DNA from: a virus
Taxonomy: Duplodnaviria > Heunggongvirae > Uroviricota > Caudoviricetes
Strand: one strand, 5' to 3'
Virus record (IMG/VR): IMGVR_UViG_2534681736_000018
DNA length: 6,073 bases
The number at the start of each line of letters is the position of its first letter. Position 1 is the first letter of the stretch. The translations under genes were made by a program, and so were the position numbers. The notes under the pieces were generated by a model. That model did no database searches and had not been told where the DNA came from. It saw nothing but the letters and a program-made list of their open reading frames with translations. Shown in pieces: positions 1,355-6,045 of this stretch.

Positions 1355-2608
1355 ATGCTGGAACAAATGGGCATTGCCGCGAAGCAAGCCTCGTATAAAT
1401 TAGCGCAACTCTCCAGCCGCGAAAAAAATCGCGTGCTGGAAAAAATCGCCGATGAACTGGAAGCACAAAGCGAAATCATCCTCAACGCTAACGCCCAGGA
1501 TGTTGCTGACGCGCGAGCCAATGGCCTTAGCGAAGCGATGCTTGACCGTCTGGCACTGACGCCCGCACGGCTGAAAGGCATTGCCGACGATGTACGTCAG
1601 GTGTGCAACCTCGCCGATCCAGTGGGGCAGGTAATCGATGGCGGCGTACTGGACAGCGGCCTGCGTCTTGAGCGTCGTCGCGTACCGCTGGGGGTTATTG
1701 GCGTGATTTATGAAGCGCGCCCGAACGTGACGGTTGATGTCGCTTCGCTGTGCCTGAAAACCGGTAACGCGGTGATCCTGCGTGGTGGCAAAGAAACCTG
1801 TCGCACTAACGCGGCAACGGTGGTGGTGATTCAGGACGCCCTGAAATCCTGTGGCTTACCGGCGGGTGCCGTGCAGGCGATTGATAATCCTGACCGTGCG
1901 CTGGTCAGTGAAATGCTGCGTATGGATAAATACATCGACATGCTGATCCCGCGCGGCGGGGCTGGTTTGCATAAACTGTGCCGCGAGCAGTCGACGATCC
2001 CGGTGATCACAGGTGGTATAGGCGTATGCCATATTTATGTTGATGAAAGTGCAGAGATTGCTGAAGCCCTGAAAGTAATCGTCAATGCGAAAACTCAGCG
2101 TCCGAGCACATGTAATACGGTAGAAACGTTGCTGGTGAATAAAAACATCGCCTATAGCTTCCTGCCCGCATTAAGCAAACAAATGGCGGAAAGCGGCGTG
2201 ACGTTACACGCAGATGCATCTGCGCTGGCGCAGTTGCAGACAGGCCCTGCGAAGGTGGTGGCGGTTAAAGCCGAAGAGTATGACGATGAGTTTCTGTCAT
2301 TAGATTTGAACGTCAAAATCGTCAGCGATCTTGACGATGCCATCGCCCATATTCGTGAACACGGCACGCAACACTCCGATGCGATCCTGACCCGCGATAT
2401 GCGCAACGCCCAGCGTTTTGTTAACGAAGTGGATTCGTCCGCTGTTTACGTTAACGCCTCTACGCGTTTTACCGACGGCGGCCAGTTTGGACTGGGTGCG
2501 GAAGTGGCGGTAAGCACACAAAAACTCCACGCGCGTGGCCCAATGGGGCTGGAAGCACTGACCACTTACAAGTGGATCGGCATTGGTGATTACACCATTC
2601 GTGCGTAA
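1355..2608 (+). CDS. proA: Gamma-glutamyl phosphate reductase (glutamate-5-semialdehyde dehydrogenase), 417 aa
   Basis: ORF 1355-2608 preceded by AAGGAG (1342-1347) 7 nt upstream of ATG; translation ([30 protein letters not shown]...) recognisable as ProA, aldehyde dehydrogenase superfamily; proBA operon arrangement. Confidence 0.96.
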
Positions 2609-2613
2609 ATAAA

Positions 2614-2679
2614 ACCGGGTGATGCAAAAGTAGCCGTTTGATTCACAAGGCCATTGACGCATCGCCCGGTTAGTTTTAA
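2614..2679 (+). terminator. Possible proBA terminator / thrW upstream structure
   Basis: 12-bp stem (2614-2625 ACCGGGTGATGC pairs with 2659-2670 GCATCGCCCGGT, one G-U) followed by TAGTTTTAA; the 33-nt loop is atypically large for an intrinsic terminator. Confidence 0.3.
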
Positions 2680-2722: not shown

Positions 2723-2798
2723 GCCGATATAGCTCAGTTGGTAGAGCAGCGCATTCGTAATGCGAAGGTCGTAGGTTCGACTCCTATTATCGGCACCA
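2723..2798 (+). tRNA. thrW: tRNA-Thr (anticodon CGU), 76 nt with encoded CCA
   Basis: GCCGATA acceptor stem pairing with TATCGGC, D-arm GCTCAGTTGGTAGAGC, anticodon loop TTCGTAA (CGT), T-arm GGTTCGACTCC, 3' ACCA; matches E. coli thrW from memory. 114-bp gap from proA as in the K-12 arrangement. Confidence 0.95.
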
Positions 2799-2812: not shown

Positions 2813-3976
2813 TTACACATCATTAGTACCTTCCTTATTTTTTGACTGGGACAAATTTGGGACCGATGGGTTCAGGATCGAGTCTATTTGCCGTGCGTGT
2901 TCGGTAAGGTGATTAGGTGCAAGGTGAGCATATCGACGAACCATTTCGATAGACTCCCAGCCTCCCATTTCCTGTAACACTGACAACGGGACTCCGGCTT
3001 GAACCAGCCAACTTGCCCAGGTGTGTCTCAAGTCGTGAAATCTGAAATCATCAATACCAGCCCGTCTCAGCGCCGCTTTCCAGGCTGTGTTTGCGTCATA
3101 CCGCATCTTCCTTACTGTTGGCGCTTTCGTTCCGTCTGGTTTGGTACAGCTTTCCTTGTACACAAATACCCAACGGTGATGATTCCCGATTTGTTTTTTC
3201 AATACGCGACATGCAGTATCATTCAGCGCAACGCCAATTGCGCGGTTTGATTTACTCTCTTCCGGGTTTATCCATGCCACCCGGCGCTGCATATCTATTT
3301 GTTGCCATTCAAGGTTGATGATGTTCGAGCGTCTTAAGCCTGTTGCCAGTGCAAATTCAACAACAGACTTTAATGGCTCCGGACATTCATCAATCAGCCT
3401 TTGTGCTTCATGGGGCTCCAGCCAGCGGATCCGTTTATTCTTTGGTTGAGGCACTTTAATAATTGGTGCCTTATCCAGCATTTTCCATTCACGCTCTGCG
3501 GCTCTTAGTAGGGCCTTTATAAATGAAAGATGCGTAGCCTTCGTTGCAACGGACGCTGGTTTTGGCGTGTATTCTGGAACAGGTTTCCCTTTTTTTCTGC
3601 ATGCTTCTGCCCTGAGTTTCCAGTTTTCCTCATGACGCCGGTTCGTCATTTTCTGCATTGCTGAATAAATTTTTGATTCAGTAATGTCTCTTAGTTGCAT
3701 TCCTGCGAAATGTTGAAGCCAGAATCCGATCCGGCTTTTGTCATCGTCCAGCGATTTTTTATGTGCTTTCTCTTCAAGCCACCTGACACACGCTTCCTCG
3801 AACGTTATATCAGGTATTTCACCAAGTTTGCTGACCCGCCATGCTTCAGCCTTTAGCTTGTCATGGAGTTCTGTCGCCTGCCTTTTGTCCTTTGTTCCAA
3901 GAGACTGTTTAAATCTTTTACCGTTCGGCAATGTGAAACTGGCGTACCATATTTCACCTCTGCGGAAGAGTGACAT
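2813..3976 (-). CDS. int: Phage tyrosine integrase, P22 Int-like, 387 aa
   Basis: ORF 2813-3976 (-); N-terminus [41 protein letters not shown] is characteristic of P22/lambda-family integrases; C-terminal catalytic region with ...[39 protein letters not shown] (R..H..R..Y motif region). RBS AGAGGAAAG upstream of ATG. P22 is known to integrate at thrW. Confidence 0.93.
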
Positions 3977-4508: not shown

Positions 4509-4870
4509 TATGCTCCAGCCTCCGGTGCTTTTGGCATTACTGCCCAGTGAGTGATATTGACGTTTTCAAGGTCCCCGACCTGAAATGTCCACTGCCATTC
4601 TCCGGTTTCTTTTTGTCCCCAGGTGTACCAGAGAGAACGCCAGCCAATTAGCCAGCCTTCTCCGTTAGCATCGAATAACAAAACACTTTCATTTGCTGGT
4701 GGCAGTTCAGTTGACACTGGTATTACTTTGTTTTCCTGTGCTGCACATTTAGCTTCAAGCGCATCGAATTTACGCACCAGGTATTCAGCATCTGTTTCAT
4801 TCACTTTCAGATCTCGCGGTACACATCTCCCACGAAGAAACCCTTCCATTTCGAAAACATTCATGCGCAT
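4508..4870 (-). CDS. DUF551-like prophage protein, 120 aa (reminiscent of CPS-53 YfdS; from memory)
   Basis: ORF 4508-4870 (-); C-terminal Trp-rich segment GWLIGWRSLWYTWGQKETGEWQWTFQ...ITHWAVMPKAPE resembles the DUF551 pattern common in enterobacterial prophages; GGAG 8 nt upstream of ATG 4870; overlaps the HD gene stop by 10 nt. An alternative ATG at 4864 is possible. Confidence 0.7.
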   Translation of the reverse strand: MRMNVFEMEGFLRGRCVPRDLKVNETDAEYLVRKFDALEAKCAAQENKVIPVSTELPPANESVLLFDANGEGWLIGWRSLWYTWGQKETGEWQWTFQVGDLENVNITHWAVMPKAPEAGA

Positions 4871-5397
4871 TTGCGTAACTCCGATAACTCGTTAAAACGT
4901 TCCATAAACATCCCGTAGGCATGGCCCGGTGCCTGTGGAATCACTTTGAACATCTCTGTTGCCGGGATACCTTCCAGTACAGGCCAGAAAGAGCCATCAT
5001 CAAGCCCGAGATCGCGGCGTTCGGTTGCCAGCATAATGAGATCGGCATATTTCACTGGCGTGCTCATAACAGGAGGTAACCCGTATTTCTCACGTATTAC
5101 GGCGTCTATTTTTTCTTCCATCCGTTTATAGTCAGGAAGAAGTCGTTTCAGTGGTGCGGGGATGTCCTGGCAATATGCTTCTGTTGCATCATGCATTAAA
5201 GCTTCAAAAGCAAATTCCTGTGGCACCAGCTGGCTGCAAAGCACCGCATGTTGGGCGACACTGTAGAAGTGTGAAAGATGTCCTGCAAAGCGACAGATAT
5301 TTGAAAGGGAAACCGCGATATCGTTAATAACGATGTCGTCTTTATTTATCCTGTCATAATAAAAATGCTTCCCGGAAAAAGTTTTAATAAATGACAT
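4861..5397 (-). CDS. HD-domain phosphohydrolase, YfbR/YfdR-like 5'-deoxynucleotidase family, 178 aa from ATG 5397 (187 aa if from 5424)
   Basis: ORF 4861-5424 (-); motifs HFYSVAQHAVL (His) and LMHDATEAYCQDIPAPLK (HD) parallel the YfbR motifs (...HSLQVAMVAH..., YHDASEVLTGDLPTPVK) as I recall them; the start at 5397 has GGAGAA 6 nt upstream, whereas 5424 lacks a clear RBS. Confidence 0.8.
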   Translation of the reverse strand: MSFIKTFSGKHFYYDRINKDDIVINDIAVSLSNICRFAGHLSHFYSVAQHAVLCSQLVPQEFAFEALMHDATEAYCQDIPAPLKRLLPDYKRMEEKIDAVIREKYGLPPVMSTPVKYADLIMLATERRDLGLDDGSFWPVLEGIPATEMFKVIPQAPGHAYGMFMERFNELSELRKCA

Positions 5398-5521
5398 TTT
5401 GTTCTCCACGTATATGCGCTGCACCGCGCTGAATTCGGGTAAAAGGAAGCCCTCACCGTCCGGCGATTATTGAGTCAATTACATTTCCATAAATGCCCCC
5501 GTAGGGGCGGTTAGTTTCTCC

Positions 5522-5610
5522 ACAAAACAGAGAAGAACACCTGCGGTGGCAGCCGCCCGGATGGATTGGGTTATGAGCCCGTCGTCCGGTGATGCTCTTC
5601 TCTGTTTTGT
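5522..5610. repeat. Perfect 15-bp inverted repeat (ACAAAACAGAGAAGA / TCTTCTCTGTTTTGT) enclosing a 59-nt GC-rich interior
   Basis: Arms at 5522-5536 and 5596-5610 are exact reverse complements; the interior contains nested GC stems (e.g. GCGG...CCGC at 5543-5556). Confidence 0.9.
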
Positions 5611-5618
5611 AAAAAGGA

Positions 5619-5655
5619 CGGTACCAGCCGGAAGCAAGGGTACAAGCTGGTACCG
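5619..5655. repeat. Perfect 10-bp inverted repeat hairpin (CGGTACCAGC / GCTGGTACCG), 17-nt loop; on the minus strand it is followed by UCCUUUUUA (terminator-like)
   Basis: Arms at 5619-5628 and 5646-5655 are exact reverse complements; plus-strand 5610-5618 is TAAAAAGGA, so a minus-strand transcript would have a U-rich tract immediately 3' of the stem. Confidence 0.85.
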
Positions 5656-5910
5656 CTAAGACTACACACAGCATAAAGTTGTGGTGCCGGGTGCCTCCCG
5701 GTGCCTGGCGAAGGTTGCACACCAGGCGGGTGGGTATCCACAGAAGGTCGACTGTCAGCCTCAACCTTAACCCGCGTGCGCTGAGCCGCATTCACCACAA
5801 CGCTAAGGATTCTCTCTGGTTGAAAATACTTAGCTGTTATGTGCCTGTCTTTTCACCACTTCAGGCTCGGTGGTATCCTTTTAAGCCCGTATACATAAAA
5901 GGAAAATCAA

Positions 5911-6045
5911 ATGACTTTTGATGAAAAAGAACTTGATAATGCAATTAATAAAATCATCGTAACGTCGCTCTTTTCCTGTCTCAGCGACACTCAGCAAAAA
6001 CAGTTTGAACCGCCCCGGGTTTCCTGGAGAGTGTTTTATCTGTGA
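5911..6045 (+). CDS. Small ORF, 44 aa (MTFDEKELDNAINKIIVTSLFSCLSDTQQKQFEPPRVSWRVFYL), divergent from the phage operon; uncertain whether it is a real gene or a remnant
   Basis: ATG at 5911 preceded by AAAAGGAAAA (RBS-like) 6-7 nt upstream; TGA at 6043-6045; below the ORF-track threshold; no recognisable family. Confidence 0.3.
   Translation: MTFDEKELDNAINKIIVTSLFSCLSDTQQKQFEPPRVSWRVFYL

Follow-up and report, generated by a model that had tools for sequence, protein, structure and literature searches.

What does a GC-rich block of about 490 nucleotides (nt) encode when it separates two divergently oriented genes of a prophage and holds no recognisable gene of its own? The block occupies positions 5425-5910 of a 6,073-nt stretch of DNA from the IMG/VR virus record IMGVR_UViG_2534681736_000018 (hereafter, the window), and a first, sequence-only reading had seen in it a candidate novel non-coding RNA, retron-like or otherwise RNA-based. 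We found that the block carries a structured RNA on its minus strand which, judging from sequence and predicted fold, is a divergent, unannotated relative of the STnc100/PasD prophage small RNAs (sRNAs) with a DicF-like tail. The claim of novelty must consequently be narrowed, since the RNA belongs, below threshold, to a described family and its 3' module resembles DicF. The kind of RNA is already known and the finding is not categorically new; what is new is a divergent subfamily missed by the Rfam thresholds, its residence in the leader of the early-left operon, and the way it is joined to a DicF-like module and to a long hairpin that is conserved. We propose that this RNA, of ~205-225 nt, acts as an Hfq-type, trans-acting, base-pairing sRNA. 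To that statement as a whole we assign a probability of about 0.6, and our confidence that a structured non-coding RNA of the STnc100 family lies on the minus strand is much higher.

Family membership, strand and architecture

The minus strand of the block matches the Rfam family STnc100 (RF02076) over the full length of the model with 43.0 bits (E = 6.4e-8), the curated gathering score of the family being 47 bits. At gathering thresholds, Rfam reports a tRNA-Thr alone in the window, and the relationship to STnc100 becomes visible in E-value mode only. Rfam-based annotation pipelines therefore miss the RNA, and gene callers make hypothetical proteins of the cassette sequence. At the corresponding position, phiES15, SfV, Salmonella phage 118970_sal3, ST64B and e14 likewise show STnc100 matches below threshold (29-41 bits). 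The core of the window RNA has the signature motifs UGGUGAAU and CACCGGGAGGCACCCGGCACCA in common with STnc100, together with a closed multi-helix junction, and the second motif, a 22-nt family signature, recurs exactly in the window and in at least 120 IMG/VR stretches for which blastn shows no other relationship.

We built a covariance model of the core, termed R1, from the window and four relatives. The window core (5806-5674) scores 147 bits against it (E = 8.8e-41), and across 77 loci the model finds 95 cores in full length, among them canonical late-region STnc100 copies at 40-90 bits. Across these 95 copies, 94.6% of the cells are paired as compared with 72% in shuffles and 38-46% in slid controls, a figure somewhat inflated by the fitting of the alignment to the model. 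Both sides have changed in 26 of the 31 pairs, several positions showing five or six pair types, and the covariation score is 0.521 against 0.141 for shuffles and at most 0.089 for slid controls. Plain MAFFT alignment of 14 divergent copies followed by RNAalifold recovered the structure in part only, because the interior is hypervariable and requires covariance-model alignment.

The features that had first drawn attention to the block are real. Its GC content is 0.545-0.570 (200-nt windows, 5401-5800), compared with 0.405 (5201-5400) and 0.380 (5801-6000) on its flanks. The exact 15-bp repeat lies within 25-nt arms (5522-5546/5586-5610) that are 84% complementary, the 10-bp repeat is complementary at 10 of 10 positions (5619-5628/5646-5655; repeat I4), and a further pair of arms at 9 of 9 (5678-5686/5793-5801). 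The minus-strand fold of the block reaches -196.3 kcal/mol (z = -6.73), a value that none of 100 dinucleotide shuffles equalled, whereas the plus strand attains only z = -3.57. Parts of the minus strand stand out by themselves against shuffles, with z = -3.9 for 5835-5606 and z = -8.0 for 5616-5490. Moreover, the U-tail and the G-U pairs are compatible with the minus strand only. The functional strand, which the sequence-only reading had left unassigned, is the minus strand, as for yfdR...xis-int.

Could the block encode a small, YmfH-like hypothetical protein? Existing annotation would favour it: the Prokaryotic Genome Annotation Pipeline (PGAP) places the protein gene ymfH over the cassette copy of the e14 prophage (L005 2989-3300; loci used for comparison bear L numbers) and labels an open reading frame (ORF) at the block in strain CV261 as a frameshifted hypothetical protein, that is, a pseudogene. 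Stop-free stretches of 75-112 codons also occur within the block. However, long open frames turn up on either strand and in several frames, which is what GC-rich DNA would be expected to show and makes a longest-ORF test uninformative; we used frame comparison instead. The window and its e14 homologue have no conserved reading frame in common, the YmfH frame of e14 being made of two different window frames joined by a 1-nt indel inside the P5 hairpin of the core. Pfam returned no family for the ORFs crossing the block, the minus-strand ORFs of 112 and 75 amino acids (aa) had no PHROG family, and the 80-aa plus-strand ORF gave a weak partial match of 23 residues (phrog_36251). Furthermore, substitutions in the core alignment keep base pairs and not codons. 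Given the lack of Pfam matches, the weak and partial PHROG match, the split YmfH frame and the PGAP pseudogene call, the block is confirmed as non-coding, in line with the earlier impression that its ORFs are not protein-like, and a protein product is very improbable.

This has a bearing on Escherichia coli K-12, where 'ymfH' of e14 is, by sequence comparison, probably an RNA and not a protein. It should probably be re-annotated as RNA, and phenotypes credited to 'ymfH' clones may be RNA effects. For instance, a screen has shown that overexpression of a 'ymfH' clone triggers RcaT, the toxin of retron-Sen2 (bioRxiv 10.1101/2020.06.22.160242), which could be an effect of the RNA. We found no report of an RNA at ymfH in the literature.

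The elements of the cassette (Table 1) follow one another as core, single-stranded linker and Rho-independent terminator, the same order as in the canonical STnc100 units of L061. The 5' stem-loop varies among relatives. The stem of P5 covaries (CCGGG/CCCGG, GGUGG/CCACC, CCUGG/CCAGG) while its AGGCA loop is constant. The candidate seed is nearly invariant in the copies from E. coli, Salmonella and Cronobacter phages, whereas the linker preceding it and the terminator stems following it vary; a search of the window for targets of the seed returned the seed itself alone. The terminator aligns to that of the STnc100 model, and its stem covaries in relatives. The architecture of the long hairpin that follows, here called module A, was found in 14 of the 16 relatives folded, phiES15 being one exception, and L084 keeps it with an entirely different stem sequence. 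Within module A, 90.6% of the cells are paired and seven pairs have changed on both sides. The hairpin is also present in many phages that have a different RNA upstream of it.

Upstream of the RNA, hairpin H0 recurs as a conserved element in L145, e14 and an SfV-like contig, and in a covarying version in L143; it is annotated in SfV as a putative terminator, and the T-rich tail after it is on the plus strand only. Several relatives carry additional motifs in this region. The loci L176, L142 and L153 have CACAACA inside a small hairpin ~60-70 nt upstream of the core, and L145 has it at ~2600-2640 (minus strand); the window copy has CACAUAACA in its place. CACAACA is the target consensus of the GcvB R1 seed, which is used by the prophage anti-sRNA AgvB (PMC4104026). 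In Salmonella relatives, a GGTTCGATTCC-like string upstream of the core suggested a tRNA-like element, which was discarded because ARAGORN found no tRNA in 12 loci.

Downstream of module A, the place of 5508-5495 is taken in relatives by a hairpin with a UKGCAG loop, after which comes the yfdP/sb37 gene. Hairpins that are small and G+C-rich and have related loops (AGGCA, GGUGCA, UKGCAG) recur in P5 of the core and ~20 nt upstream of the yfdP/yfdR ribosome-binding sites. A common factor could bind them, although comparable hairpins arise by chance in other parts of the window as well. A GKGCA-loop hairpin upstream of ribosome-binding sites was not retained as a distinct element, since similar hairpins elsewhere in the window are at least as frequent.

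Table 1. Coordinates of the cassette elements and of their surroundings (window positions unless a locus number is given; MFE, minimum free energy; HTH, helix-turn-helix)
Feature	Position	Strand	Remarks
Match to STnc100 (RF02076)	5831-5609	-	model positions 1-206 of 206
Hairpin H0	5874-5855	-	ACCACCGAGCCUGAAGUGGU on the RNA strand; between start of plus-strand small ORF and the RNA
5' stem-loop	5834-5802	-	arms 5834-5822/5814-5802; inverted repeat I2; in MFE fold; STnc100 model 1-30
Five-helix core	5806-5674	-	closing stem P1 encloses helices P2-P5
P1	5801-5793/5686-5678	-	GUUGUGGUG (5801-5793) pairs with CACCACAAC (5686-5678)
P5 hairpin	5701-5687	-	CCGGG-AGGCA-CCCGG; within 22-nt signature CACCGGGAGGCACCCGGCACCA
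Candidate seed	5673-5658	-	G/U-rich, single-stranded, 16 nt: UGCUGUGUGUAGUCUU; unpaired in MFE fold
Intrinsic terminator	5656-5646/5628-5618; 5615-5611	-	11-bp G+C-rich stem, then U5; inverted repeat I4
Module A	5615-5517	-	long hairpin with 25-bp arms; conserved inner part CCGGACGACGGGCUCAUAACCCAAUCCAUCCGG; starts in U-run of terminator; z = -8.0
GC hairpin	5508-5495	-	GCCCC-UACG-GGGGC, then AUUUAU; aligns to hairpin after yfdQ in SfV, mEp460
Small hairpin	5429-5416	-	GCGC-GGUGCA-GCGC; ~20 nt upstream of yfdR start codon; invariant in SfV, mEp460, ST64B
Related-loop hairpins	5416-5429; 5687-5701; L002 2996-3015; L127 2970-2987		
Shuffled modules	L145 2150-2700; L143 5650-6050		core directly before ribosome-binding site of a small gene
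proB, proA	window		
tRNA-Thr (thrW)	2723-2798		lambdoid prophage integrated adjoining this tRNA
int	2813-3976	-	prophage gene
HTH excisionase (xis), yfdT, DUF551 protein	between int and yfdR	-	
yfdR-type HD-domain 5'-deoxynucleotidase	4861-5397	-	PGAP annotation in CV261; phrog_318, E = 3.8e-109
Small phage ORF, first 31 codons	5911-6005	+	phrog_3311; 81 aa when intact

Position of the cassette in the prophage and its relatives

In SfV, mEp460, ST64B, e14, 118970_sal3, F1055, phiES15 and phiNP, the cassette is always found between cI and the first early-left gene, in sense orientation to the leftward early operon. Operator-like repeats common with the cI-cro region are located directly after the cI stop, which places the cassette 300-900 nt downstream of the left operator (OL) and promoter (PL). 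Past the edge of the window, the full-length relatives carry the small phrog_3311 ORF, cI, cro and replication genes. None of the relatives examined has the cassette in the late-region 'moron' site (downstream of Q/PR', at the stx, nanS-p or lysis genes). The sequence-only reading had described the block as a divergent intergenic gap, which is correct for its location between yfdR and the plus-strand ORF; it is not merely a promoter gap, as in relatives the sequence forms part of the leader that precedes the leftward early genes. In ST64B and phiNP this non-coding leader of 700-900 nt contains no plausible N-like ORF. The first PL-proximal ORFs of e14 (YmfJ) and SfV (Orf33) were considered as N-like proteins and rejected, since they are without an arginine-rich N-terminus. 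A strong terminator in a non-coding leader of 700-900 nt raises the concrete question of how N-less phages would read through into their early-left genes.

Like the structured non-coding RNA itself, its assignment to the integrase-proximal arm of a lambdoid prophage was borne out. In this prophage yfdR is the first gene downstream of the cassette; its protein remains below the cut-off of the Pfam family YfbR-like (24.5 bits, cut-off 25.9; E = 2.4e-5). On the opposite side, the end of an IS3-family (IS629-like) insertion sequence (IS), from 6006 to the last window position, 6073, truncates the phrog_3311 ORF after codon 31. The intact 81-aa ORF is found in strain CV261, where it matches phrog_3311 (3.1e-55); a related IS sits there at a different site, ~290 bp further on, and the OL operators of that locus lie beyond an IS. 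Positions 5400-6005 are 100% identical to many O157:H7 chromosomes, and from 6006 on the sequence is that of a multi-copy IS3-family element. Furthermore, yfdP and yfdQ have been lost from this prophage by a deletion with its joint at ~5497-5509, as the sequence from the 5508-5495 hairpin through the yfdR ATG aligns to the yfdQ-yfdR spacer of SfV and mEp460. SfII and SKA5 are arranged alike.

The core, seed, terminator and long hairpin of the window copy are all intact and 97-99% identical to the copies of SfII, SKA5 and SfV, in contrast to the defective e14 copy, which has a deletion and a substitution inside the P5 signature. The terminator and the long hairpin persist in mEp460 and many Stx2c phages, whose core differs and which are without the seed. 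L145-type loci start with a short hairpin, the same seed and a terminator, and continue with a core without terminator and then the next gene. Canonical STnc100 genes follow Q in tandem, as core-linker-terminator units. These arrangements suggest a modular toolkit of core, seed/terminator and long hairpin that is shuffled by phages.

The canonical layout can be seen in L061 (4370-5510), where four STnc100 units stand in series from the terminator of the Q gene to the lysis genes. Units 1-3 are spaced ~250 nt apart and a small ORF precedes the fourth, and units 1, 2 and 4 each consist of a core, a differing linker and a terminator.

By blastn, at least part of the 486-nt block is present in 3153 of 5426 complete E. 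coli genomes, most matches being partial, and at least 80% of it in 678. Phages with matches to the block infect Escherichia, Shigella, Salmonella, Cronobacter, Citrobacter and Klebsiella. We also observed above-threshold isrK and C4 antisense RNA genes in the rightward operons, near the antirepressor region, of SfV (L002 5964-6152), mEp460 (L003 5652-5840) and ST64B (L004 5732-5920), indicating several RNA regulators per phage.

Trans-acting RNA, operon leader or relic

In the mechanism we favour, a minus-strand RNA would run from ~5831 (or 5813) to 5611 and fuse two modules, the STnc100/PasD five-helix core and a DicF-like 3' module composed of G/U-rich seed, intrinsic terminator and U-tail. 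Its source may be either a weak dedicated promoter or the leftward early (PL) transcript, from which termination or processing would release it, much as DicF arises from the dicB operon. With PL on one side of the cassette and the first leftward early gene on the other, the terminator would also gate transcription of the early-left operon, here into yfdR...xis-int. Where transcription reads through, the U-run is predicted to become part of module A, which could plausibly serve the downstream mRNA as an RNase III-type processing site or as a stabilising element. We favour a trans-acting sRNA because Hfq-dependent sRNAs and canonical STnc100 RNAs are, as a standard, built in this way, from a structured 5' domain, an unpaired G/U stretch, a terminator and a U-tail. 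The analysis itself establishes the strand, the relationship to the family, the fold, the conservation of the seed, the terminator, the lack of coding capacity and the constant place in the genome; Hfq dependence, targets in trans, gating and processing at module A are proposals.

Several observations weigh against this explanation. The STnc100 score stays below the curated Rfam threshold (43.0 against 47). The locus is not among the 11 STnc100 loci listed for EDL933, and the parts of that study's novel non-coding RNA table returned by a term search list none near 305 kb (PMC5331693). A consensus scan found no convincing sigma-70 promoter upstream on the minus strand, which is weak evidence because the scan also missed the promoters of canonical STnc100 units. 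The IS3-family element between the inferred PL and the cassette, together with the loss of yfdP-yfdQ, implies that the window copy may be poorly expressed. In addition, since the core and the seed/terminator module are separate or reordered in other phages, and mEp460 is without the seed, the core may have a function of its own that does not involve base pairing.

The main alternative, which we consider unlikely, is that the cassette serves mainly as a cis-acting leader of the leftward early operon in N-less lambdoid phages, the short terminated RNA being a by-product. It might operate by put-like processive antitermination, with the core or hairpins modifying RNA polymerase or recruiting a factor, or as an attenuator or processing switch for yfdP/Q/R...xis-int. 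The constant position argues for such a leader, as the cassette always comes 300-900 nt past cI/OL and just before the first early-left gene, co-oriented with the operon, and so do the leaders of ST64B and phiNP with no N-like ORF. A strong terminator directly before the operon and a second terminator-like hairpin after yfdQ would call for some read-through mechanism. Moreover, the core of L145-type loci follows the terminator and stands directly in the 5' untranslated region of the next gene, the sequence of module A is more conserved than the interior of the core, and canonical STnc100 copies are co-oriented inside the antiterminated (PR') operon. On the other hand, the cassette has no similarity in sequence or structure to putL or putR, and an R1 search of SfV and ST64B gave no second copy in their PR operons, while put comprises both putL and putR. 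Canonical units look self-contained, with their own terminators and discrete Hfq-bound transcripts, and an antiterminator ending in its own efficient terminator would be an awkward design. A more specific proposal, to which we give slightly less credence, would make the core, with its invariant AGGCA P5 loop and GAAU/P2 region, more than an sRNA scaffold, namely a cis domain binding RNA polymerase or a phage or host protein. Core, terminator and long hairpin together would then constitute an early-left antitermination or read-through switch throughout the sizeable group of N-less lambdoid phages (SfV, ST64B, e14, mEp460 and phiNP), and the late STnc100 copies would do likewise in PR' operons.

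We are about as doubtful that the cassette of this particular prophage is an inert relic, cut off from its promoter and inactive in O157. The rearrangements of the prophage would fit a relic, namely the IS3-family element from 6006, the yfdP-yfdQ deletion and OL operators that lie beyond an IS in the related CV261 locus, as would the absence of the locus from the consulted portions of the EDL933 tables (PMC5331693). Yet core, seed, terminator and long hairpin are all intact, at 97-99% identity to the sequenced phages SfII, SKA5 and SfV, whereas the e14 copy is already altered inside the P5 signature. Even less probable than a protein product is the retron msr-msd, or other RNA-guided or RNA-scaffolded defence module, envisaged by the sequence-only reading. 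All that speaks for it is the general appearance of a structured RNA in accessory DNA, and the likeness ends there; the 'ymfH' clone that triggers the retron-Sen2 toxin (bioRxiv 10.1101/2020.06.22.160242) concerns another retron and not this locus. A covariance-model search gave no retron msr/msd family at E <= 10 on either strand. No reverse transcriptase is seen in the window, as had been noted from the start, the neighbours being yfdR, DUF551, yfdT, xis and int on one side and the phrog_3311 ORF, the IS and cI on the other; none of the neighbouring proteins has a PADLOC match, and there is no defence gene at the cassette. Nor did an effector gene turn up beyond the window, where the sequence-only reading had proposed to look: the full-length relatives show ordinary phage genes only, with no reverse transcriptase or other effector, an outcome that the same reading had named as counting against its idea. 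As membership in the STnc100 family explains the RNA instead, the retron or defence interpretation is refuted as far as sequence analysis reaches.

Comparison with known RNA systems

The proposed trans-acting sRNA resembles STnc100 in its five-helix core, its signature motifs, the order of core, linker and terminator, its residence in lambdoid prophages and its co-orientation with a long phage operon. It differs in its location, in the leader of the early-left operon beside int-xis, while canonical copies occupy the late 'moron' site after Q/stx. The linker/seed and terminator of the window are DicF-like, and the conserved long hairpin that follows is absent from canonical units. In enterohaemorrhagic E. 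coli, STnc100 overlaps EcOnc27/sRNA103. It does so downstream of stx2B, EcOnc27 being an Hfq-bound sRNA (PMC12711010; PMC4104026). In EDL933, 11 STnc100 copies are annotated and STnc100_4 is confirmed by Northern blot (PMC5331693). PasD of enteropathogenic E. coli is Hfq-dependent and has target interactions in RIL-seq, in which interacting RNAs are ligated and sequenced (PMC8550237), and STnc100 and PasD have been proposed to share an ancestor (bioRxiv 10.64898/2026.05.13.724894, a 2026 preprint).

A structured RNA in the early-operon leader of a lambdoid phage without N is known from HK022, whose putL and putR act there (PMC9378689). The likeness to our cassette concerns the leader position in an N-less phage and is possibly a functional analogy only, as the put RNAs are ~70 nt long, consist of two stems, occur in both early operons and have no terminator of their own. 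Identity with put was rejected: in the HK022 immunity region, inspection by eye and nhmmer revealed no similarity, blastn-short gave chance words of 7-8 nt, and R1 scored at most 9.3 bits.

Early termination of the PR' (Shiga toxin) transcript yields another regulatory sRNA, StxS. There too, an early-terminating leader of a phage operon gives rise to a regulatory RNA and antitermination to a long mRNA; promoter and operon are different, and the likeness is an analogy.

DicF is an Hfq-dependent sRNA of the Qin prophage that is processed from the repressor-controlled leftward dicB operon and represses ftsZ. The 3' module of our RNA has the same shape, with a GGCGGUAyCAG...CCGCC terminator preceded by a short 5' part that is single-stranded, and it likewise sits inside a repressor-controlled leftward operon of a lambdoid prophage. 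The seed-plus-terminator of e14 aligns end to end with Rfam DicF (RF00039; 28.5 bits, E = 3e-4, in a 501-nt search), and the window copy gives 13.5 bits (E = 5.3), the gathering score of 48 bits being reached by neither. DicF is without the STnc100 core, and the seed differs from the DicF consensus in the e14 alignment, so that the targets should differ. Altogether, these findings would carry the STnc100/PasD family beyond the late 'moron' site into the repressor-proximal early-left operon and link it to DicF, which is, by analogy, the closest precedent for an sRNA in this position.

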